64,000 nucleotides of DNA from sequence record PP216085; one strand, 5' to 3'. This document shows, one piece after another, positions 2,367 to 36,269 of this stretch. This stretch comes from Escherichia phage vB_EcoM_HZ_ZJUN4. The position numbers and the translations under genes were made by a program. Under the pieces are notes generated by a model. The model saw only the letters and a list, made by a program, of their open reading frames with translations. It did not search any database and was not told where the DNA came from. Within the stretch, counting starts at the first letter, position 1. Each line of letters begins with the position of its first letter.

Positions 2367-3368
2367 ATGACTCGTAACGAATATATCAAATCATTCAATA
2401 GTGTTATTGATGATAAAGCTATACCGGTGTTTGGCCAAAATAGCGTTATTTCTATTATCAATCAATGGCTCAATAGCGTTGACGCGAGTATTGTTTCTTC
2501 TGCTAAATTTATTCATGAAATTCGTAAAATTTCTAGCCGTGTAGATAAAGATGTTATCAAGAAAACCTTTAAAGAGTCTCGTCTTCTTTCATATTTGGTT
2601 AATCGGGATATTCTTGGTAATTTTGGGAAAGAAATTAAACGAACCAAAGATGTAGTAGGATATAATTGGTTCGGTGATGTTAATTCTTATCATCTTAATG
2701 TCAAAGAAGACCCTGAGAATATTTTTACTCGTCGTTGGATTAGTAATTTCAGACTTTTCAAAGGACAGATTCTAAAATCAGCTTCTAAATTATGTTATGG
2801 CGATTATCGTCAAATTCATCCTTTGGCTTCTGATATGATTATCATAAAAGAATATGAACTTGATAAAAATAAAGTATCTATTTTTGTGAATTATGGATTT
2901 TTTACACCAGAAACTAACCAAAAGAATATTAATAAATTTTTCTCAATTGCTAGCACTATAACTCGTCAATTAGAAACCGCATTACTTTGTATGGAAACGG
3001 TAGAAAATATTCATACTTATCCTTTTAAGAATATGTGTGGTTGGGAAGGATATAAAATTATAATTAGCCTTCGTGAAGTGAAATGCGCTTATTCACCGAC
3101 TGATAAAGAAATTTACCAACAAAAATGTGATGAAATTGTGAATACTCCTAAAGAAGAAACTACCCTTGAAGAACTAATGGATAATCTTGACGATTCGCCT
3201 GAACCGATAGAAATTCGTCCAGAAGTTATTGCACTAGAAAAAGCTTATAAAGAAGTTCTAGAAATTTCTAATAAAGCGCAGAAAGAATATGAGAAGGCTA
3301 AAAGGATTTGGGAAGAATCTGTTAATCGCCTGGATCGTCTTGAACAAGCTTTACAGCTAATTAAGTAA
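2367..3368 (+). CDS. hypothetical protein, tandem paralog 3 (coiled-coil-like C-terminus)
   Basis: Track ORF 2316..3368 trimmed to ATG (MTRNEYIKS) preceded by GAGGAG RBS; motif FKGQILKSASKLCYGD; K/E-rich tail. Confidence 0.65.
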   Translation: MTRNEYIKSFNSVIDDKAIPVFGQNSVISIINQWLNSVDASIVSSAKFIHEIRKISSRVDKDVIKKTFKESRLLSYLVNRDILGNFGKEIKRTKDVVGYNWFGDVNSYHLNVKEDPENIFTRRWISNFRLFKGQILKSASKLCYGDYRQIHPLASDMIIIKEYELDKNKVSIFVNYGFFTPETNQKNINKFFSIASTITRQLETALLCMETVENIHTYPFKNMCGWEGYKIIISLREVKCAYSPTDKEIYQQKCDEIVNTPKEETTLEELMDNLDDSPEPIEIRPEVIALEKAYKEVLEISNKAQKEYEKAKRIWEESVNRLDRLEQALQLIK

Positions 3369-3420
3369 TTTAAAGCCAAGGATGGCTCGGAGTATAAATC
3401 ATTAACCAAGTGAGAAGAAC

Positions 3421-4350
3421 ATGAAAACTCGTAAACATTATATTGATTATTTTGACAGTCTTATTACTAAACATCGTAATTATCAGATAGGACATAGAGC
3501 AGTAATCAATAATATTCTTCGTGATTTCCTTCAATATGTTGGCCAGGAAAATCATATCTGTAAAGATACACAGAACGCTTATTCTCATTCGTTGGGCAAT
3601 TTGCTTCAATGGTTTAAACGTTCTCGTATGTTATCTTCTACTGTAGCTCGTGATAACATTAAAAACTTTATGAAGCCGAGCTTTATTAAATCTGAGACAT
3701 CTATAACTGATTTGGTTGAATTTACTATTGTTAACGATGTTAAAAAGACCCATTTGGCTGATTGGTTATCTACCATTCCTGAAACTAAATTTGCTGATAA
3801 ATTCGCTTGTCAATTCAATGACCAAGTGAATATGCTTTTTAAGCATGCTCGTAAACTATTTACCGCAGGCGATGACCGTACAAATACAGTTCATGTTAAG
3901 GACTGGGTTATTGCTGATGAAGTAACGCACAAGCCAGGTGGTTCATCAGTATTAATTAATATCCAGGTTCCTTATTATTACTCACGTAATCTCGGCACCA
4001 TGACAGCTAGAGAAATTAATAAGCATAACAAAACTATTCGTTCGTTGTCTTATAAACTCTGCACGATGGTGGAGATGATGGACGTAGTGGAAATGTATGA
4101 TGAAACCGAAGATAATAGTTCAATGTTATACAGTTCACGCATTTTAATTAAACTGAAGAATCCTAATACATATAAGCCAGTTGTAAAAGAACCTAAAGTA
4201 GAAAAGGTTGATAACTTGAGCGAAGAACGTGAATACCTCAAATCTCGACTAGTTGAAGTTGAAGCCCAGATTGCCGAACACACCAAATTGTTAAAAGCTC
4301 TTAATGCAAAAGCAAATGGTTTACGCAATGCTATTGAGGTATTGAAATGA
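3421..4350 (+). CDS. hypothetical protein, tandem paralog 4 (coiled-coil-like C-terminus)
   Basis: N-term MKTRKHYIDYF similar to paralog 2; motif MLFKHARKLFTAGDD; tail [33 protein letters not shown]. Confidence 0.65.
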   Translation: MKTRKHYIDYFDSLITKHRNYQIGHRAVINNILRDFLQYVGQENHICKDTQNAYSHSLGNLLQWFKRSRMLSSTVARDNIKNFMKPSFIKSETSITDLVEFTIVNDVKKTHLADWLSTIPETKFADKFACQFNDQVNMLFKHARKLFTAGDDRTNTVHVKDWVIADEVTHKPGGSSVLINIQVPYYYSRNLGTMTAREINKHNKTIRSLSYKLCTMVEMMDVVEMYDETEDNSSMLYSSRILIKLKNPNTYKPVVKEPKVEKVDNLSEEREYLKSRLVEVEAQIAEHTKLLKALNAKANGLRNAIEVLK

Positions 4351-6774: not shown

Positions 6775-8588
6775 CAATTGAAAAAGAAATTGAAGGATTA
6801 ATTCATAAAACTAATAAAGACCTTTTGAACGAGAATGCTAATAAAGATTCTCGTGTTTTTCCAACTCAACGGGACCTTATGGCTGGTATTGTGTCTAAAC
6901 ACATTGCCAAAAATATGGTCCCGTCTTTTATTATGAAAGCGCATGAAAGCGGAATTATTCATTTCCATGATATTGATTATTCCCCTGCTCTTCCATTTAC
7001 TAATTGCTGTTTAGTAGATTTAAAAGGAATGCTTGAGAACGGGTTTAAGCTTGGTAATGCACAGATTGAAACCCCTAAATCAATCGGCGTTGCTACTGCA
7101 ATTATGGCACAAATTACTGCACAGGTTGCTTCCCATCAATACGGTGGAACGACTTTTGCGAATGTAGATAAAGTCCTTTCTCCTTATGTTAAACGCACCT
7201 ATGCAAAACATATTGAAGACGCGGAAAAATGGCAAATCACTGATGCGTTGAATTATGCCCAATCTAAAACAGAAAAAGATGTATACGATGCGTTCCAAGC
7301 TTATGAATATGAAGTAAATACTCTCTTTAGTTCAAACGGACAAACGCCTTTTGTAACAATTACATTTGGTACGGGAACTGACTGGACTGAACGAATGATT
7401 CAGAAAGCAATTCTGAAAAATCGTATTAAAGGTCTTGGTCGTGACGGGATAACTCCTATTTTCCCTAAACTTGTTATGTTCGTTGAAGAAGGTGTTAATC
7501 TTTATAAAGACGATCCGAACTATGATATTAAGCAGCTTGCTCTAGAGTGTGCAAGCAAAAGAATGTATCCTGATATTATTTCAGCTAAGAACAATAAAGC
7601 TATCACCGGTTCATCTATTCCTGTTTCTCCAATGGGTTGCCGTAGTTTCTTGAGCGTATGGAAAGATTCGACTGGTAATGAAATTCTTGATGGACGTAAT
7701 AATCTTGGTGTTGTAACACTGAATCTTCCTCGCATTGCACTAGATTCTTATATTGGAACACAGTTCAATGAACAGAAATTTGCCGAATTGTTCAATGAGA
7801 GAATGGATTTATGTTTTGAAGCATTGATGTGTAGAATTAGTTCCTTAAAAGGAGTTAAAGCTACTGTTGCTCCTATTCTTTACCAAGAAGGTGCATTCGG
7901 GGTTCGTCTTAAACCTGATGACGATATAATTGAGTTATTTAAAAACGGTAGAAGTTCAGTGTCCCTAGGATACATTGGTATTCACGAATTGAATATTCTT
8001 GTCGGTCGTGATATTGGACAAGAAATTTTAACTAAAATGAATACTCATCTTAAGCAGTGGACTGAAAGAACCGGTTTTGCTTTTAGCTTGTATTCTACTC
8101 CTGCTGAAAACCTGTGCTATCGCTTCTGTAAACTTGATACTGAGAAATATGGAAGTGTAAAAGATGTTACTGATAAAGGATGGTACACTAATAGTTTCCA
8201 TGTTTCAGTAGAAGAAAATATCACTCCGTTTGAAAAGATTTCTCGTGAAGCACCATATCATTTCATTGCGACAGGTGGTCACATTTCTTATGTTGAACTT
8301 CCTGATATGAAAAATAACTTAAAAGGTCTTGAGGCTGTATGGGATTATGCTGCGCAACATTTAGATTATTTTGGCGTTAACATGCCAGTAGATAAATGTT
8401 TTACGTGTGGAAGTACCCATGAAATGACTCCTACTGAAAACGGATTTGTTTGTTCTATTTGTGGAGAAACTGATCCTAAAAAGATGAACACAATAAGAAG
8501 AACTTGTGGTTATTTGGGAAATCCGAATGAACGCGGATTTAATCTTGGCAAAAATAAAGAAATCATGCATAGGGTTAAACACCAATGA
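6771..8588 (+). CDS. nrdD: anaerobic ribonucleoside-triphosphate reductase NrdD (uninterrupted, no intron)
   Basis: 605 aa; C-terminal Cys cluster CFTCGS...CSICGE and glycyl-radical region RRTCGYLGNPNERGFNLGK; matches recalled T4 NrdD. Confidence 0.95.
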   Translation: MTIEKEIEGLIHKTNKDLLNENANKDSRVFPTQRDLMAGIVSKHIAKNMVPSFIMKAHESGIIHFHDIDYSPALPFTNCCLVDLKGMLENGFKLGNAQIETPKSIGVATAIMAQITAQVASHQYGGTTFANVDKVLSPYVKRTYAKHIEDAEKWQITDALNYAQSKTEKDVYDAFQAYEYEVNTLFSSNGQTPFVTITFGTGTDWTERMIQKAILKNRIKGLGRDGITPIFPKLVMFVEEGVNLYKDDPNYDIKQLALECASKRMYPDIISAKNNKAITGSSIPVSPMGCRSFLSVWKDSTGNEILDGRNNLGVVTLNLPRIALDSYIGTQFNEQKFAELFNERMDLCFEALMCRISSLKGVKATVAPILYQEGAFGVRLKPDDDIIELFKNGRSSVSLGYIGIHELNILVGRDIGQEILTKMNTHLKQWTERTGFAFSLYSTPAENLCYRFCKLDTEKYGSVKDVTDKGWYTNSFHVSVEENITPFEKISREAPYHFIATGGHISYVELPDMKNNLKGLEAVWDYAAQHLDYFGVNMPVDKCFTCGSTHEMTPTENGFVCSICGETDPKKMNTIRRTCGYLGNPNERGFNLGKNKEIMHRVKHQ

Positions 8589-9424
8589 ATTACGATAGAT
8601 TTTATCCCTGTGATTTTGTGAATGATAAATTATCTTTAATATTTGAAGAAAATAATGATTTACTATTGTCATATGTTGATTTGATAACAAAAAATTATAA
8701 TAATCCTAAAATAAAAGGAAAAACGGAAGCACATCACGTGCTTCCCAAATCTATATTTCCCGAATATAAAACAGATAAATGGAATATTGTTAATTTGTCA
8801 TATTATGACCACGCGTTAGCTCATTACTATTTAGCTAAAACAAGTAATAGTAAAATGTGTTATGCCTTTCATAGAATGATAAACTCGAATACCGATAGAT
8901 TTAATACAGATGAATTGGATGAAATTCTTAAATTGTATTCCAGTGAAAAGGAATTATTTCACCGCTCTATGTCAAAATTATCGAAAAATATATGGAAGGA
9001 TGACGATTTTAGAAAAAGACATAGAGAACTAACTAAGTTAGCAATGCAAAAACCTGAAGTTAGAAATAAAACTTTATTAAATTTGTCAAATGCAATGAAA
9101 ACTGACGAAGTTAGAAATAAAATTTCCAGGCTAACTAAGTTAGCAATGCAAAAACCTGAAGTAAAAGAAAAACATAGAAATTCATTGAGGTTGGCGTATG
9201 CAAATCCTGAGGTTATGAAAAGAAAACATCAACGTCTTCGAGAAAAATATACTCTTAATTTATTTGGCGCATATAAAGATGGTGTTCTTTTAAAAACATT
9301 TAATTATATACCAGACGCAGCAAAATATTTTAATATTTCTAGCAAAGGAAATATTTTAAAATGTTTAAATGGCGAACGTAAAAGTGTTGAAGGCTATAAT
9401 TGGAAATATATAAATGAATTATGA
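8585..9424 (+). CDS. free-standing HNH homing endonuclease (Mob-like) inserted between nrdD and nrdG
   Basis: HNH region EAHHVLPKS...NIVNLSYYDHALAH; tandem repeated modules LTKLAMQKPEV(R/K)(N/E)K; first 13 codons MNYDRFYPCDFVN nearly identical to nrdG start. Confidence 0.85.
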   Translation: MNYDRFYPCDFVNDKLSLIFEENNDLLLSYVDLITKNYNNPKIKGKTEAHHVLPKSIFPEYKTDKWNIVNLSYYDHALAHYYLAKTSNSKMCYAFHRMINSNTDRFNTDELDEILKLYSSEKELFHRSMSKLSKNIWKDDDFRKRHRELTKLAMQKPEVRNKTLLNLSNAMKTDEVRNKISRLTKLAMQKPEVKEKHRNSLRLAYANPEVMKRKHQRLREKYTLNLFGAYKDGVLLKTFNYIPDAAKYFNISSKGNILKCLNGERKSVEGYNWKYINEL

Positions 9425-12168: not shown

Positions 12169-12386
12169 ATATGAACGAAGCTCTTATTAACGATTTGCGT
12201 CTTGCCGGATATGAAGTAAATACAAACGGCATTGGTTTAACTCAAATTGAAGGAAATGGATTCATCCTTGAGTATGAATTTAGCCAATGGTGGTTATACG
12301 CTAATTACGGCGAATTGATTGAATACGTTGACCAGTTTGATTCACTAGATGCAGCTCTCGAAGCGGCTAAGTTGATGAATGTATGA
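12165..12386 (+). CDS. hypothetical protein
   Basis: Track ORF, 73 aa, ATGA overlap. Confidence 0.45.
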   Translation: MNMNEALINDLRLAGYEVNTNGIGLTQIEGNGFILEYEFSQWWLYANYGELIEYVDQFDSLDAALEAAKLMNV

Positions 12387-12652
12387 AATTTATTAATATT
12401 TCTATTACTATTGAAAATTATGGAATTTTCTATGTTGACCAATACATGAAAATTTCATTTTTCCCAAATAAGACTGGTGTTGGATATTGGGAAAGCCATG
12501 TTTCTGAATTAAATGAAAGTGAATATGCTAGCACACATGAAAAGTTTTTAGACTTTTTATATCATGCTGATTTAACTAGTCATTACATAGATATTCATGA
12601 ATTTAAAAAGATGATGGAGAAAGTGTTCCAAGCATACTGTTTACTTAGATAA
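12383..12652 (+). CDS. hypothetical protein
   Basis: Track ORF, 89 aa, ATGA overlap. Confidence 0.4.
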   Translation: MKFINISITIENYGIFYVDQYMKISFFPNKTGVGYWESHVSELNESEYASTHEKFLDFLYHADLTSHYIDIHEFKKMMEKVFQAYCLLR

Positions 12653-12730
12653 CTGATATCCTCTATGCTTTAAGATAGATCTTCAAATATTATGATATAA
12701 TAGATCTATGAATTGAGCTAAGAGGTGAAA

Positions 12731-13288
12731 ATGTCAGAAACTAAGCCTAAATATAATTACGTAAACAATAAAGAGCTTTTACAGGCTATTATTGATTGGA
12801 AAACAGAATTAGCAAATAATAAAGACCCAAATAAAGTAGTTCGTCAGAATGATACTATCGGATTAGCCATTATGCTTATCGCAGAAGGCTTATCTAAACG
12901 TTTCAACTTTTCAGGATACACCCAATCTTGGAAACAAGAAATGATTGCAGATGGTATAGAAGCTTCTATTAAGGGGCTTCATAATTTTGATGAAACGAAA
13001 TATAAAAACCCACATGCATATATAACTCAAGCTTGTTTTAATGCATTCGTCCAACGTATTAAAAAAGAACGTAAGGAAGTTGCAAAGAAATATAGTTACT
13101 TCGTTCACAATGTCTATGACAGTCGTGACGACGATATGGTTGCGTTAGTAGATGAAACTTTTATTCAAGACATCTACGATAAAATGACGCATTACGAAGA
13201 ATCAACCTATAGAACACCAGGGGCTGAAAAGAAAAGTGTTGTAGACGATTCTCCTAGTTTGGATTTTTTATATGAGGCTAACGATTAA
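12731..13288 (+). CDS. 55: late-transcription sigma factor gp55
   Basis: Track ORF 12725 (GTG) trimmed to ATG with AGAGGTGAAA RBS giving 185 aa [24 protein letters not shown]; matches recalled T4 gp55. Confidence 0.9.
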
Positions 13289-22158: not shown

Positions 22159-24855
22159 ATGAAAGAATTTTATATCTCTATTGAAACAGTCGGAAATAAC
22201 ATTGTTGAACGTTATATTGATGAAAATGGAAAGGAACGTACTCGTGAAGTAGAATATCTTCCGACTATGTTTAGGCATTGTAAGGAAGAGTCAAAATACA
22301 AAGACATTTATGGTAAAAATTGTGCTCCTCAAAAATTTCCATCAATGAAAGATGCCCGAGACTGGATGAAACGAATGGAAGACATCGGTCTCGAAGCTCT
22401 CGGTATGAACGATTTTAAACTCGCTTATATCAGTGATACATATGGTTCAGAAATTGTTTATGACCGAAAATTTGTTCGTGTAGCTAACTGTGACATTGAG
22501 GTTACTGGTGATAAATTTCCTGACCCAATGAAAGCAGAATATGAAATTGATGCTATCACTCATTATGATTCAATTGACGACCGTTTTTACGTCTTTGATT
22601 TGTTGAATTCAATGTACGGTTCAGTATCAAAATGGGATGCAAAGTTAGCTGCTAAGCTTGACTGTGAAGGTGGTGATGAAGTTCCTCAAGAAATTCTTGA
22701 CCGAGTAATTTATATGCCATTTGATAATGAGCGTGATATGCTCATGGAATATATTAATCTCTGGGAACAGAAACGACCTGCTATTTTTACTGGTTGGAAT
22801 ATTGAGGGATTTGACGTTCCGTATATCATGAATCGTGTTAAAATGGTTCTCGGCGAACGCAGTATGAAACGCTTCTCTCCAATCGGTCGAGTAAAATCTA
22901 AACTAATTCAAAATATGTACGGTAGCAAAGAAATTTATTCTATTGATGGCGTATCTATTCTTGATTATTTAGATTTGTACAAGAAATTCGCATTTACTAA
23001 TTTGCCATCATTCTCTTTGGAATCAGTTGCTCAGCACGAAACCAAAAAAGGTAAATTACCATACGACGGTCCTATTAATAAACTTCGTGAGACTAATCAT
23101 CAACGATACATTAGTTATAACATCATTGACGTAGAATCAGTTCAAGCAATTGATAAAATTCGCGGGTTTATTGATCTAGTTTTAAGTATGTCTTATTACG
23201 CTAAAATGCCTTTTTCTGGTGTAATGAGTCCTATTAAAACTTGGGATGCTATTATTTTTAACTCATTGAAAGGTGAACATAAGGTTATTCCTCAACAAGG
23301 TTCGCACGTTAAACAAAGTTTTCCAGGTGCATTTGTATTTGAACCTAAAGCGATTGCTCGTCGATACATTATGAGTTTTGACTTGACGTCTCTGTATCCG
23401 AGTATTATTCGTCAGGTTAACATTAGTCCTGAAACTATTCGTGGTCAGTTTAAAGTTCATCCAATTCATGAATATATCGCAGGAACAGCTCCTAAACCGA
23501 GTGATGAATATTCTTGTTCTCCGAATGGATGGATGTATGATAAGCATCAAGAAGGTATCATTCCAAAGGAAATCGCTAAAGTATTTTTCCAGCGTAAAGA
23601 TTGGAAAAAGAAAATGTTCGCCGAAGAAATGAATGCCGAAGCTATTAAAAAGATTATTATGAAAGGTGCAGGGTCTTGTTCAACTAAACCAGAAGTTGAA
23701 CGATATGTTAAGTTCAATGATGATTTCTTAAATGAATTATCGAATTACACCGAATCTGTTCTTAATAGTCTGATCGAAGAATGTGAAAAAGCAGCTACAC
23801 TTGCTAACACAAATCAGCTGAACCGTAAAATTCTTATTAACAGTCTTTATGGTGCTCTTGGTAACATTCATTTCCGCTATTATGATTTGCGAAATGCTAC
23901 TGCTATCACAATTTTTGGTCAAGTCGGTATTCAGTGGATTGCTCGTAAAATTAATGAATACCTGAATAAAGTGTGTGGAACTGATGGTGAAGATTTCATT
24001 GCAGCGGGTGACACTGATTCTGTATATGTTTGTGTAGATAAAGTAATTGAAAAAGTAGGTCTTGACCGCTTTAAAGAACAAAATGATTTAGTTGAATTCA
24101 TGAATCAGTTCGGTAAGAAAAAGATGGAACCTATGATTGATGTTGCATATCGTGAGTTATGTGATTATATGAATAACCGCGAGCATCTGATGCATATGGA
24201 CCGTGAAGCTATTTCTTGTCCTCCGCTTGGTTCAAAGGGTGTCGGTGGATTTTGGAAAGCGAAAAAACGTTATGCTCTAAACGTTTATGATATGGAAGAT
24301 AAGCGATTTGCTGAACCACATCTAAAAATCATGGGTATGGAAACTCAGCAGAGTTCAACACCAAAAGCAGTACAAGAAGCTCTCGAAGAAAGTATTCGTC
24401 GTATTCTTCAGGAAGGCGAAGAGTCTGTCCAAGAATACTACAAGAACTTTGAGAAAGAATATCGTCAACTTGACTATAAAGTTATTGCTGAAGTAAAAAC
24501 TGCGAATGATATAGCGAAATATGATGATAAAGGTTGGCCAGGATTTAAATGCCCGTTCCACATTCGCGGGGTGCTAACTTATCGTCGAGCTGTTAGTGGT
24601 TTAGGTGTAGCTCCAATTTTGGATGGAAATAAGGTAATGGTTCTTCCATTACGTGAGGGAAATCCATTTGGTGACAAGTGCATTGCTTGGCCATCAGGTA
24701 CGGAACTTCCAAAAGAAATTCGTTCTGATGTACTGTCTTGGATTGACTACTCAACTTTGTTCCAAAAATCGTTTGTTAAACCGCTTGCGGGCATGTGTGA
24801 ATCGGCAGGTATGGACTATGAGGAAAAAGCTTCGTTAGACTTCCTGTTTGGCTGA
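22159..24855 (+). CDS. 43: DNA polymerase gp43 (family B, with 3'-5' exonuclease)
   Basis: 898 aa; exo motif ANCDIEV, polymerase motifs SLYPSII, KILINSLYGALG, YGDTDS. Confidence 0.95.
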   Translation: MKEFYISIETVGNNIVERYIDENGKERTREVEYLPTMFRHCKEESKYKDIYGKNCAPQKFPSMKDARDWMKRMEDIGLEALGMNDFKLAYISDTYGSEIVYDRKFVRVANCDIEVTGDKFPDPMKAEYEIDAITHYDSIDDRFYVFDLLNSMYGSVSKWDAKLAAKLDCEGGDEVPQEILDRVIYMPFDNERDMLMEYINLWEQKRPAIFTGWNIEGFDVPYIMNRVKMVLGERSMKRFSPIGRVKSKLIQNMYGSKEIYSIDGVSILDYLDLYKKFAFTNLPSFSLESVAQHETKKGKLPYDGPINKLRETNHQRYISYNIIDVESVQAIDKIRGFIDLVLSMSYYAKMPFSGVMSPIKTWDAIIFNSLKGEHKVIPQQGSHVKQSFPGAFVFEPKAIARRYIMSFDLTSLYPSIIRQVNISPETIRGQFKVHPIHEYIAGTAPKPSDEYSCSPNGWMYDKHQEGIIPKEIAKVFFQRKDWKKKMFAEEMNAEAIKKIIMKGAGSCSTKPEVERYVKFNDDFLNELSNYTESVLNSLIEECEKAATLANTNQLNRKILINSLYGALGNIHFRYYDLRNATAITIFGQVGIQWIARKINEYLNKVCGTDGEDFIAAGDTDSVYVCVDKVIEKVGLDRFKEQNDLVEFMNQFGKKKMEPMIDVAYRELCDYMNNREHLMHMDREAISCPPLGSKGVGGFWKAKKRYALNVYDMEDKRFAEPHLKIMGMETQQSSTPKAVQEALEESIRRILQEGEESVQEYYKNFEKEYRQLDYKVIAEVKTANDIAKYDDKGWPGFKCPFHIRGVLTYRRAVSGLGVAPILDGNKVMVLPLREGNPFGDKCIAWPSGTELPKEIRSDVLSWIDYSTLFQKSFVKPLAGMCESAGMDYEEKASLDFLFG

Positions 24856-25424: not shown

Positions 25425-25676
25425 ATGGAAACTTTAGTAGCAGGTTCAATTTTTATGGTTTTAGTTTCAGGCGTGTTGGCTATTATTATATACATGCTTC
25501 CATGGTTCATCGCCTTGATGCGCGGGTCAAAATCGACAGTAGGAATCTTTTTCACATCTTTACTGTTTAACTGGTCAATTATTGGTTGGTTTATTACATT
25601 TATTTGGTCAATTGCTGGTGAAACTAAAAAATCTGCGCAGCCAAATCAGGTAATTATCATCAGAGAGAAGGAATGA
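25425..25676 (+). CDS. imm: probable superinfection immunity membrane protein Imm
   Basis: 83 aa, two hydrophobic helices, directly upstream of gene 42; assignment by synteny and length. Confidence 0.65.
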   Translation: METLVAGSIFMVLVSGVLAIIIYMLPWFIALMRGSKSTVGIFFTSLLFNWSIIGWFITFIWSIAGETKKSAQPNQVIIIREKE

Positions 25677-25822
25677 AAAGCAAAATTTTAGCAGTATTGC
25701 TTTTAATATTGATGATTATAATAAGTATATACTATAGCGTAACAGTTCCTTGTATGATTCCGCCACTTATTATAGGTTGGGGTTTATTACTGTTACAAGT
25801 TAAATATGAATGTATCAATTGA
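25673..25822 (+). CDS. small membrane peptide (49 aa)
   Basis: Not in ORF track; ATGA overlap with imm stop; MKSKILAVLLLILMIIISIYY... Confidence 0.3.
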   Translation: MKSKILAVLLLILMIIISIYYSVTVPCMIPPLIIGWGLLLLQVKYECIN

Positions 25823-25829
25823 GGTTTAA

Positions 25830-26570
25830 ATGATTAATGACTCTATGACAGTTGAAGAAATTCGTCTTCATTTGGGAATTGCATTAAAGGAAAAAGATTT
25901 TGTAATTGACAAAACCGGGGTTAAAACTATTGAAATTATTGGTGCATCATTTGTAGCAGATGAACCTTTTATTTTTGGCGCTCTTAATGATGAATACATT
26001 CAGCGTGAACTTGAATGGTATAAGTCTCAAAGTTTGTTTGTTAAAGATATTCCAGGTGAAACACCAAAGATTTGGCAGCAGGTAGCATCTTCTAAAGGCG
26101 AAATTAACTCGAATTATGGTTGGGCTATTTGGTCAGAAGATAACTATGCTCAGTATGATATGTGTTTAGCTGAACTTGGTCAAAATCCTGATTCTCGGCG
26201 TGGTATCATGATTTATACTCGTCCATCCATGCAGTTTGACTACAATAAAGATGGTATGTCAGATTTCATGTGTACGAATACAGTACAGTACCTGATTCGT
26301 GATAAGAAAGTCAATGCAGTAGTAAGCATGAGAAGCAATGATTGCTGGGCAGGCTATCGTAATGATTATGCTTGGCAAAAATACGTACTAGATAAATTAG
26401 TATCTGACTTGAATGCAGGCGACCCATCGCGGCAATATAAAGCAGGTTCTATTATATGGAACGTTGGAAGTCTTCATGTGTACGAAAATCAGTTTTATTT
26501 AGTTGACCATTGGTGGAACACCGGTGAGACTCATATTGCTAAAAAGGATTATACTGGAAAATGGAAGTAA
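25830..26570 (+). CDS. 42: dCMP hydroxymethylase gp42
   Basis: 246 aa thymidylate-synthase-like; catalytic Cys context FMCTNTVQY. Confidence 0.92.
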   Translation: MINDSMTVEEIRLHLGIALKEKDFVIDKTGVKTIEIIGASFVADEPFIFGALNDEYIQRELEWYKSQSLFVKDIPGETPKIWQQVASSKGEINSNYGWAIWSEDNYAQYDMCLAELGQNPDSRRGIMIYTRPSMQFDYNKDGMSDFMCTNTVQYLIRDKKVNAVVSMRSNDCWAGYRNDYAWQKYVLDKLVSDLNAGDPSRQYKAGSIIWNVGSLHVYENQFYLVDHWWNTGETHIAKKDYTGKWK

Positions 26571-27202
26571 ATGTGCCACATGTTTATAAGTATAAACATC
26601 CTAAAACTAAAAAGTGGTATATAGGAAGTCATGATGGTCACAACCCGAATTATGATGGTTCGGGTGTAGTTTGGCAACATGCTAAAAAGAAATATGGAAT
26701 AAAATCCTTTAATAAAGAAATATTATATGAAGGACCAATGTTTAGACAGGTTGAAGAAATTATTTTAACTTGTTTAGATGCTGCTAATTGTCCGGATTCA
26801 TATAATTTAAAGAATGAAGCATGGGGAGGAAGTTTTCCAGGCAAATTAAATGGAATGTACGGTAAAAAACTATCTCCAGAAGAAAGATATAAGTGCGGAA
26901 ATGCCTTTCGTGGAATCAAGCGTCCTGATCATTCTAAAAGAATGAAAGGCGAAGGTAATCCAATGTATGGTAAAAATGAGCAGGCATATGGAATTATAAA
27001 TCGAGCCAAGGAAAATTCTGGTAAAACTTATGAAGAAATTTTTGGCGTAGAAAAAGCTAAAATAATTAAAGAAACGATGTCTAAAAATCGTAAAGGAAAA
27101 CCTCATAATTTGATAGAAAAAATATGTCCGCATTGCGGACTAAAAGGACGTGGGCCAAATATGACAAGATACCATTTTGACAAATGTAAGGCACTTAAAT
27201 GA
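26561..27202 (+). CDS. GIY-YIG homing endonuclease (Seg-like)
   Basis: N-terminal KWYIGSHDG...YDGSG GIY-YIG-like motif; repeated modules (GKKLSPEERYK / GIKRPDHSKRMKGEGNPMYGK); C-terminal CPHCG; overlaps gene 42 end. Confidence 0.75.
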   Translation: MEVNVPHVYKYKHPKTKKWYIGSHDGHNPNYDGSGVVWQHAKKKYGIKSFNKEILYEGPMFRQVEEIILTCLDAANCPDSYNLKNEAWGGSFPGKLNGMYGKKLSPEERYKCGNAFRGIKRPDHSKRMKGEGNPMYGKNEQAYGIINRAKENSGKTYEEIFGVEKAKIIKETMSKNRKGKPHNLIEKICPHCGLKGRGPNMTRYHFDKCKALK

Positions 27203-28041
27203 TTCAATTCGTAATTCCAAGTTATCAACGCGTAGGGGCAGTTTCTGCCCTTGATATGTTTCCGACTGATTATGAACCTCATATTGTAGTACGTGAACAC
27301 GAAGAAAAAGCTTATTATGACGCTTACGGGTCTAGAGCTAAAATTATAACTATTCCTGATGATGTTAATGGAATTGCTGGAACTCGTAAAGCAATTACTG
27401 ATATGTATGCAGGTCAACGAATCTGGATGATTGACGATGATACTACTATTCGTATGAGTTCAATGCGAAAGAAAGATGATCGTCGCTGCGTAGATAAAAT
27501 TAACCAGTTAACTCGTGAACAGTTCTATGAATTGATTCAATACGTTGAAGATGCCATGGATTGCGGGTATTATCATGGTCATGCTCGTTTACCTATTTTT
27601 AAAATTACTTCATCTTGGGGTAATTATCGTGAAAATTCATATGGATTCACGAATACTTGGTATGACCTCGGAAAACTTGCAACAGAACAAATTGGGTATG
27701 GAAAAATTGATTTATGCGAAGATATGTATGCATTTCTCAATTTAATTAATCAAGGTTATCCGCATTTGGCCTTGTTCAAATATCTAGTTGTATCTGGAAA
27801 AGCACAGGCTCCCGGTGGATGCAGCTCAATTCGTAGTAATTCAAAACATAATAGAGCGCTTGAGCAAATCAATAGAGAGTTTCCAGAGCAAGCTCGTTGG
27901 AAAACTTCTAATATTGAAAAACGAAAATCATTGGGTGAAGAAGACGAGCCATTAAAGGTTCTTCGCATGTGTGTTTCACGCAAAGAAAAGTCAGAAGCAT
28001 TTCATAAGTTTAATGCTATTCATCCAATAGCAGTTGATTAA
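27199..28041 (+). CDS. putative DNA-modifying glycosyltransferase at the beta-gt locus (possibly beta-glucosyl-HMC-alpha-glucosyltransferase type)
   Basis: 280 aa between gene 42 and uvsX; N-terminus MIQFVIPSYQRVG and acidic MIDDDTT; not the recalled T4 Bgt sequence. Confidence 0.45.
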   Translation: MIQFVIPSYQRVGAVSALDMFPTDYEPHIVVREHEEKAYYDAYGSRAKIITIPDDVNGIAGTRKAITDMYAGQRIWMIDDDTTIRMSSMRKKDDRRCVDKINQLTREQFYELIQYVEDAMDCGYYHGHARLPIFKITSSWGNYRENSYGFTNTWYDLGKLATEQIGYGKIDLCEDMYAFLNLINQGYPHLALFKYLVVSGKAQAPGGCSSIRSNSKHNRALEQINREFPEQARWKTSNIEKRKSLGEEDEPLKVLRMCVSRKEKSEAFHKFNAIHPIAVD

Positions 28042-28065
28042 TGCCTAAATTTATTGTGTTATAAT
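28042..28065 (+). promoter_or_regulatory. candidate middle promoter upstream of uvsX
   Basis: MotA-box-like ATGCCTAAA about 11 nt upstream of TATAAT. Confidence 0.3.
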
Positions 28066-28118
28066 TACTTTATCTTTAACCAGTGAGGAAAATATAATGA
28101 TGCCTATGGAAAAAATGA

Positions 28119-29300
28119 ATGTCTATTGCAGATTTAAAATCCCGTTTGATTAAAGCTTCCACTTCTAAAATGACTGCTGAACTGACTACATCTAAATTCT
28201 TTAATGAAAAGGATGTAATCCGTACAAAAATCCCAATGCTTAATATCGCTATTTCAGGTGCGATTGACGGTGGTATGCAGTCTGGTTTAACCATTTTTGC
28301 AGGTCCTTCTAAACACTTTAAATCAAATATGTCTTTGACTATGGTTGCGGCGTATTTGAACAAATATCCTGACGCGGTATGTCTATTTTATGATAGCGAA
28401 TTTGGTATTACTCCAGCTTATTTGCGATCCATGGGAGTTGACCCGGAACGAGTAATTCATACACCAATCCAGTCAGTTGAACAACTGAAAATTGATATGG
28501 TGAATCAGCTTGAAGCTATTGAGCGCGGTGAAAAAGTTATTGTATTCATCGACTCAATCGGTAATATGGCTTCTAAGAAAGAAACGGAAGATGCCTTGAA
28601 TGAAAAATCTGTGGCAGATATGACTCGTGCTAAATCACTGAAGTCATTATTCCGTATTGTTACTCCTTATTTTAGCATTAAAAATATTCCATGCGTTGCG
28701 GTTAACCATACAATTGAAACAATTGAAATGTTTAGTAAAACCGTGATGACAGGTGGTACAGGCGTAATGTATTCGGCTGATACTGTATTCATTATCGGTA
28801 AGCGTCAGATTAAAGATGGTTCTGATCTTCAGGGGTATCAATTTGTTCTAAATGTAGAAAAATCTCGTACCGTTAAAGAAAAAAGTAAATTCTTTATTGA
28901 TGTTAAATTTGACGGTGGTATCGATCCTTATTCTGGATTGTTAGATATGGCTCTTGAATTAGGATTTGTGGTAAAACCTAAAAATGGCTGGTATGCTCGT
29001 GAATTTCTTGATGAAGAAACCGGCGAGATGATTCGTGAAGAAAAATCTTGGCGTGCAAAAGATACCAATTGCACTACATTCTGGGGTCCTTTATTTAAGC
29101 ATCAACCATTCCGAGATGCTATTAAACGTGCTTATCAGTTAGGTGCTATTGATAGTAATGAAATTGTTGAAGCTGAAGTTGATGAATTGATTAACTCAAA
29201 GGTTGAAAAATTTAAATCTCCAGAAAGTAAAAGTAAATCAGCAGCTGATTTAGAAACTGACCTAGAACAGTTAAGTGATATGGAAGAATTTAATGAATAA
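28119..29300 (+). CDS. uvsX: recombinase UvsX (RecA-like)
   Basis: 393 aa; Walker A GPSKHFKS; C-terminal sequence matches recalled T4 UvsX closely. Confidence 0.95.
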   Translation: MSIADLKSRLIKASTSKMTAELTTSKFFNEKDVIRTKIPMLNIAISGAIDGGMQSGLTIFAGPSKHFKSNMSLTMVAAYLNKYPDAVCLFYDSEFGITPAYLRSMGVDPERVIHTPIQSVEQLKIDMVNQLEAIERGEKVIVFIDSIGNMASKKETEDALNEKSVADMTRAKSLKSLFRIVTPYFSIKNIPCVAVNHTIETIEMFSKTVMTGGTGVMYSADTVFIIGKRQIKDGSDLQGYQFVLNVEKSRTVKEKSKFFIDVKFDGGIDPYSGLLDMALELGFVVKPKNGWYAREFLDEETGEMIREEKSWRAKDTNCTTFWGPLFKHQPFRDAIKRAYQLGAIDSNEIVEAEVDELINSKVEKFKSPESKSKSAADLETDLEQLSDMEEFNE

Positions 29301-34350: not shown

Positions 34351-35690
<1,340 letters not shown>

Positions 35691-35753
35691 CTGCTTATAT
35701 ATTCAAATGATATAATTATTTAACTTATTAATGAATTGAAAGGAAAACTAATG

Positions 35754-36269
35754 GCTCACTTTAATGAATGTGCTCATTTGATCGAAGGTGTTGATAAAGC
35801 AAATCGTGCATATGCTGAGAATATTATGCACAATATTGACCCACTGCAGGTTATGCTTGATATGCAGAAATCTTTACAGATTCGCTTGGCTAATGATAAG
35901 CCAGAAACAAATCGTCATCCTGATTCGCTTGAAACTGCAGGAGAAGTTCTTGCTTGGTTGCGAAACCAAGACGATTATATCGCAGACGAAACTCGCGAGC
36001 TATATACTTCTCTTGGCGGTATGAGTAATGGCGAAAAAGAAGCTTCTGCTGTATGGAAACCTTGGAAGAAACGTTATTCTGAAATGCAATCCAAGAAAAT
36101 TCAAGATTTATCTCCTGAAGATCAACTTGAAATTAAATTTGAACTAATTGACCAATTTCACTTTTTCATGAATAAATTCATTGCTCTTGGAATGTCAGCT
36201 GAAGAAATCTTTAAACTTTATTATCTGAAAAATGCCGAAAACTTCGCTCGTCAAGACCGAGGCTATTAA
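35754..36269 (+). CDS. 56: dCTPase-dUTPase gp56 (MazG-like)
   Basis: Track ORF trimmed to 171 aa MAHFNECAHLIEGVDKA... Confidence 0.85.
   Translation, partial: AHFNECAHLIEGVDKANRAYAENIMHNIDPLQVMLDMQKSLQIRLANDKPETNRHPDSLETAGEVLAWLRNQDDYIADETRELYTSLGGMSNGEKEASAVWKPWKKRYSEMQSKKIQDLSPEDQLEIKFELIDQFHFFMNKFIALGMSAEEIFKLYYLKNAENFARQDRGY

Follow-up and report, generated by a model that had tools for sequence, protein, structure and literature searches.

A predicted glucosyl-DNA beta-glucosyltransferase gene of the T2/T6 type at the T4 b-gt position of Escherichia phage vB_EcoM_HZ_ZJUN4

The gene that lies ahead of uvsX in Escherichia phage vB_EcoM_HZ_ZJUN4 (ZJUN4), at the position held by b-gt in T4, very probably encodes a glucosyl-DNA beta-glucosyltransferase of the T2/T6 type (EC 2.4.1.28) belonging to the Pfam TAGT family. 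The assignment of this gene (ggt) comes from sequence comparison, from which we infer the activity of its product in ZJUN4. The window, which is the whole stretch of 64,000 nucleotides of record PP216085 that was analysed, also contains the partner genes of a hydroxymethylcytosine (hmC) modification pathway (Table 1).

Table 1. Positions of ggt, its neighbours and the partner genes in the window
Feature	Product	Coordinates	Strand	Remarks
a-gt	DNA alpha-glucosyltransferase, 400 aa	14225..15427	+	Would make the alpha-glucosyl-hmC that is extended by ggt
gene 43		22159..24855		Upstream of ggt
gene 42	dCMP hydroxymethylase, 246 aa	25830..26570	+	Would make hm-dCMP; Pfam Thymidylat_synt, E 1.6e-14
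Homing endonuclease ORF	Seg-like (GIY-YIG) free-standing homing endonuclease, 213 aa	26561..27202	+	Exactly at the gene 42/ggt junction
ggt (TAGT)	Predicted glucosyl-DNA beta-glucosyltransferase ('beta-glucosyl-HMC-alpha-glucosyltransferase'), 280 aa	27199..28041	+	DDD at residues 79-81; N-terminal FVIPSYQR motif
uvsX		28119..29300		100% identical to T2 UvsX
dam		34911..35687		In the window; common to T2 and Geo
gene 56	dCTPase/dUTPase	35751..36266 (tblastn match bounds)	+	Would exclude unmodified dCTP from phage DNA

The ggt protein has close relatives in T2, T6, NR1 and Geo. It is identical at 275 of 280 residues (98.2%) to the product of the T2 ggt CDS, which is annotated 'beta-glucosyl-HMC-alpha-glucosyl-transferase' (MH751506, AYD82639.1), has the same length and occupies the same slot between gene 42 and uvsX. 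Identity to the like-named T6 CDS (MH550421) is 255/261; in a second T6 record (AP018814) 273 of the 279 aligned residues are identical, with a one-residue gap at D79. The orthologue in phage vB_Eco_NR1 (NR1; LR990704, CAD7712138.1), annotated as a glucosyl transferase, is identical at 276 of 280 residues and the Geo enzyme at 272 of 280. Profile searches agree with these alignments. Residues 1-275 match PHROG 842 'beta-glucosyl-HMC-alpha-glucosyltransferase' (E 6e-89), and the Pfam model PF20691 (TAGT, TET-associated glycosyltransferase) is matched at 39.3 bits (E 8.6e-10), above its gathering score of 27.5. The Pfam alignment pairs residues 3-207 with profile positions 2-205 of 205, that is, with the whole domain, and a precomputed PF20691 assignment exists for 9 of the 11 database homologues. 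A search of NCBIfam yielded no model matching ggt or a-gt. Three features place the protein in the T2/T6 ggt group (PHROG 842): full-length identity, a gene located between gene 42 and uvsX, and co-occurrence with a-gt. A preliminary description of this DNA had suggested such an enzyme from position and size and had proposed a homology search as a check. That search relates the protein to sugar transferases, and the T2/T6 reading is supported by the T2, T6, PHROG 842 and PF20691 matches together with the a-gt gene in the window. The original cloning and activity paper for the enzyme is reportedly that of Winkler and Rueger (1993).

The fold of the predicted protein points in the same direction. 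Only 11 relatives, down to 29% identity, came out of a large protein search, and the alignment available for a structure model is shallow as a result. On this shallow alignment the AlphaFold2 model is only moderate overall, with a mean pLDDT of 68 and a pTM of 0.71. The N-terminal half is modelled with confidence (blocks of 84-94 over residues 1-80), and residues 124-151 and 192-211 fall below a pLDDT of 50. The structure prediction, which had also been proposed as a check, gives a model that resembles GT-A/GT2-like glycosyltransferases; its Rossmann-like, nucleotide-sugar-binding fold matches that of solved GT-A enzymes. A search of PDB sequences with the ggt protein produced chance matches only (E ≥ 0.7) and no solved relative. 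The family alignment consists of ten full-length sequences, down to 32% identity, and contains 40 invariant columns, among them R11, D79, D80 and D81. The three aspartates follow directly on a predicted strand (74-78) and constitute a conserved DxD motif, the metal and nucleotide-sugar binding element that GT-A enzymes have behind their fourth beta strand. P251 is kept in nine of the ten sequences, and the residues specific to the ZJUN4 protein (K92, I101 and A161) sit in variable columns. The protein resembles the TAGT family, a GT-A fold family sister to GT2, in its full-length match, predicted fold and DxD motif. It differs in that its match to the family model has an E-value of only 8.6e-10 and in that its T-even clade branches off as a divergent group, whose additional C-terminal stretch of approximately 70 aa is poorly modelled.

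The reading frame is intact in the ORF listing of the window. It starts with ATG and encodes a protein with the N-terminus MIQFVIPSYQRVGAV (also quoted as MIQFVIPSYQRVG…) and the acidic stretch MIDDDTT at residues 77-83. A pseudogene reading was rejected because the frame is intact and all 40 family-invariant residues are kept. Upstream of ggt lie imm.1/imm, gene 43 and gene 42; downstream lie uvsX, gene 40 and gene 41. The 280-aa protein had been placed between gene 42 and uvsX, and both the interval and the coordinates are exact; it does not, however, stand directly behind gene 42, because the order is gene 42, homing endonuclease ORF, ggt and uvsX. The T4 interval from gene 42 to uvsX contains b-gt (351 aa) and segA. 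The order in T2, T6, NR1 and Geo is 42, ggt, uvsX, with the stop codon of gene 42 and the start codon of ggt overlapping as ATGA. The endonuclease ORF of ZJUN4 shares 10 nt with the end of gene 42 and 4 nt (ATGA) with the start of ggt; it is the immediate upstream context of ggt and is not a member of the modification pathway. A promoter scan of 25600..28300 found 13 promoter-like sites against 11.8 expected by chance, which gives no ground for proposing a promoter of its own for ggt. A terminator scan picked up a 9-bp G+C-rich hairpin, TAGGGGCAG-TTT-CTGCCCTTG, at 27233..27253 (+), 35 nt into the ggt coding region; its T-tract is weak. The hairpin sequence is kept in T2, T6, NR1, Geo and the endonuclease-positive phages, with one base change in ACG-C40 and NR1.

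The T-even route to glucosylated DNA begins with gp42, which makes the hm-dCMP that is incorporated into DNA. The a-gt product then adds an alpha-linked glucose from UDP-glucose, and TAGT/ggt extends it with another glucose through a beta-1,6 bond to give alpha-gentiobiosyl-hmC (PMC13216743, PMC13390438). The a-gt product of ZJUN4 is identical to that of T2 at 395/400 residues (98.75%), to that of NR1 at 396/400 and to those of T4, T6 and Geo at 363-364/400. Gp42 is 93.5% identical to T2 gp42 (92-95% across T2, T4 and T6), and a tblastn search with T2 gp56 locates gene 56 with 98.3% identity over 172 aa. The a-gt sequences fall into two allele classes that are approximately 91% identical, ZJUN4, T2 and NR1 in one and T4, T6 and Geo in the other. 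These classes match neither the ggt phylogeny nor the reported gentiobiosyl levels, and this disagreement is a sign that the two glucosyltransferase genes have a mosaic history.

The same steps are predicted for ZJUN4. Gp42 would make hm-dCMP and gp56 would remove dCTP, after which the polymerase would incorporate hmC. The a-gt product would transfer glucose from UDP-glucose in alpha linkage to the 5-hydroxymethyl group, and the 280-aa GT-A enzyme would use a second UDP-glucose to attach a beta-1,6-linked glucose, yielding alpha-gentiobiosyl-hmC. A divalent metal would probably be held by DDD79-81, and the reaction would be metal-dependent. The transfer is probably inverting, as in GT2-like enzymes, since the conversion of UDP-alpha-glucose to a beta linkage fits the GT2-like fold. 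Beta-monoglucosyl-hmC would not be expected because no match to T4 Bgt was found among the four proteins searched at the locus (those of ggt, a-gt, gene 42 and the homing endonuclease ORF).

Published HPLC/MS measurements agree with this expectation. All of the measured Tequatrovirus phages with a-GT and TAGT and without b-GT contain 5-hmdC, alpha-glucosyl-hmC and alpha-gentiobiosyl-hmC, and beta-glucosyl-hmC was detected in none of them (PMC13390438). NR1 and six others have approximately one third hmC and two thirds gentiobiosyl-hmC with a low background of alpha-glucosyl-hmC; in Geo, EL and BGP the ratio of hmC to alpha-glucosyl-hmC to gentiobiosyl-hmC is approximately 1:2:2 (PMC13390438). 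By analogy with the phages whose enzymes are 97-98.6% identical (NR1 and Geo), a gentiobiosyl pattern in the DNA of ZJUN4 is well supported.

Gentiobiosyl cytosines are approximately 5% in T2 and 72% in T6 (quoted in PMC13390438). T2 reaches only this low level with a 98% identical enzyme, and therefore a nearly identical sequence does not determine how far the DNA is modified. The T2 and NR1 proteins have only three differences (R11H, N24D and P251S), and the T2 protein is identical in both T2 records: H11 and S251 are present in MH751506 at 12286..13128 (-) and in AP018813 at 3283..4125 (-). R11 and P251 are found in ZJUN4 and in the rest of the family, and the ZJUN4 and NR1 proteins differ at four other residues (D24N, K92R, I101V and A161T). 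The R11H and P251S changes could explain the low gentiobiosyl content of T2. Because the ZJUN4 protein keeps both R11 and P251, we infer a high, NR1/T6-like gentiobiosyl fraction rather than the T2-like value.

The main rival to this prediction is that the same enzyme acts at a low, T2-like level, so that most cytosines would be alpha-monoglucosylated and a few percent would be gentiobiosyl-hmC. We consider this rather unlikely, although several observations speak for it. The ggt and a-gt products are about as near to those of T2 (275/280 and 395/400) as to those of NR1, and T2 itself has the low level in question (PMC13390438). NR1 has the same synteny but lacks the homing endonuclease insert, as does T2 between gene 42 and ggt; the start of ggt in ZJUN4 is coupled to the endonuclease ORF and not to gene 42, and its expression may change. 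NR1 also lacks dam. Dam and an adjoining 179-aa ORF are common to ZJUN4, T2 and Geo, and the Geo pattern is intermediate. Against the low level stands the short list of differences between T2 and NR1, in which one changed position is invariant (R11) and another nearly so (P251); at both of these ZJUN4 has the residue of NR1, Geo and T6, whose gentiobiosyl levels are high or intermediate. The higher, NR1/T6-like fraction remains the preferred prediction.

Both public T6 records carry lesions in ggt. MH550421 has a TAG at codon 10 (12924..12980, -) and its annotated CDS begins at M20; AP018814 (4135..4974, -) has lost one Asp in frame from the invariant DDD motif. Given the 72% gentiobiosylation classically reported for T6, these lesions are unexpected.

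The enzyme that occupies this genomic slot in T4 is a different protein. The preliminary description had noted that the 280-aa protein does not match T4 Bgt, and this is borne out: BLASTP gives no alignment of the two at E <= 10, and the Pfam family of T4 Bgt (PF09198) has no match in the ggt protein. A T4 Bgt-like reading of the gene was rejected for this lack of similarity. The two share the slot, UDP-glucose-dependent glucosylation of phage DNA and a beta linkage. They differ in sequence, in fold (GT-B, family GT63, in Bgt and GT-A in ggt, by PMC13216743 and the model comparison) and in acceptor, which is hmC itself for Bgt and alpha-glucosyl-hmC for ggt. The shared slot, and the solitary TAGT homologues that some phages have without a-gt or b-gt (PMC13216743), might suggest that the ZJUN4 protein is a primary transferase that places a sugar directly on hmC as a functional stand-in for Bgt. 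This is very improbable, as phages with 97-98.6% identical enzymes contain no beta-glucosyl-hmC (PMC13390438) and leave approximately one quarter to one third of their hmC unglucosylated, although a primary transferase should have glucosylated these positions as well. Transfer of another sugar, such as the arabinose of RB69 and other Mosigvirus phages, which would make the annotation a misnomer in ZJUN4, has the least probability of all: the GT-A fold does not reveal sugar specificity and arabinosylating T4-like phages exist, but they belong to another genus with a different precursor pathway (PMC13390438), for which the arabinosyltransferase reading was rejected, the window proteins compared with T2 are 93-100% identical, and the NR1 and Geo orthologues yield glucose-only products. 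Extension of alpha-glucosyl-hmC by a second glucose is thus retained as the predicted activity.

The ORF between gene 42 and ggt matches the PHROG 314 homing endonuclease family (E 2e-31) and shares 32% identity with T4 SegA (E 5e-8), with weak matches to TIGR01453 (group I intron endonuclease) and NUMOD3. T2, T6, NR1 and Geo lack it. Only 77 phage records contain it, 71 of them at ≥99% identity, a level at which ggt is matched in none. The last ~260 bp of gene 42 (26310..26570) are diverged and common to the endonuclease-positive phages ZJUN4, ACG-C40 and HY03. Over this tract, which includes an SRH to ENQ change in gp42, the identities per 60-nt bin are 57-60 among the endonuclease-positive phages and 41-54 against the endonuclease-free T2, NR1, Geo and T6; T4 falls to 37. 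The same bin comparison detects no comparable diverged tract on the ggt side of the ORF. Target variants that are co-converted or immune to cleavage are typical of free-standing Seg endonucleases, and the diverged 3' end of gene 42 has the look of one. The endonuclease may be active and recently spreading, it may cut gene 42 at its 3' end in T-even phages that lack the ORF, and it may drag the neighbouring DNA-glucosylation cassette along in mixed infections. The joint proposal, that a spreading endonuclease drags the cassette and, as a second possibility, that R11 separates the high-gentiobiosyl NR1 and T6 and the predicted ZJUN4 from T2, is speculative and we give it only a small chance. If true, Seg-like elements could help explain the alternation of b-gt and ggt at one slot; segA adjoins b-gt in T4.

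Two further ORFs of the window resemble genes of related phages. One, of 279 aa at 8585..9424 (+), sits where T6 has segH, with nrdD and nrdG on either side. It resembles the T2_56 protein (37% identity), which in T2 adjoins a mob-like homing endonuclease fragment, and may thus represent a further insertion of a mobile endonuclease. The other is the 179-aa ORF that adjoins dam (34351..34890, +), which has 95.5% identity to T2_31 and is almost the same as Geo_034. This ORF may correspond to the 'restriction enzyme-like' gene of the Geo, EL and BGP group, the only group from which that gene is reported (PMC13390438).

The arrangement found in ZJUN4 is widespread. DNA of ggt is present in 478 phage records, 474 of them at 90-99% identity over ≥80% of the gene. 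These are mostly Tequatrovirus phages of Escherichia, Shigella, Yersinia and Salmonella, many of them likewise annotated, and the 4.5-kb neighbourhood of ggt is 96-98% identical to that of many published phages. According to two 2026 papers (PMC13216743, PMC13390438), ggt is the gene that usually stands where T4 has b-gt. A-GT or b-GT together with TAGT accounts for the vast majority of phages that encode glucosyltransferases, and a-GT occurs with b-GT in only 6 of 753 genomes, T4 included (PMC13216743). For this reason ZJUN4 represents the majority case in Tequatrovirus and T4 is the exception. The novelty implied by the preliminary description for a ggt gene at the Bgt locus therefore does not hold, as no arrangement is commoner in the genus and T4 Bgt is rare (PMC13216743). 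The literature already covers the gene and its name, the b-gt-syntenic position, the GT-A fold and the product.

The sugar pattern on hmC had been expected to affect sensitivity to host restriction and CRISPR systems, and the literature agrees. It sets which defences are escaped or triggered, including type IV restriction (McrBC and GmrSD/BrxU, for example), CRISPR-Cas and Brig1, a glycosylase that acts on alpha-glucosyl-hmC (PMC13216743, PMC13390438). With a-gt and ggt present and b-gt not found at the locus, the DNA of ZJUN4 is predicted to carry a mix of hmC, alpha-glucosyl-hmC and gentiobiosyl-hmC. This predicted mix would be useful for the prediction of host range and for the handling of the DNA in vitro.
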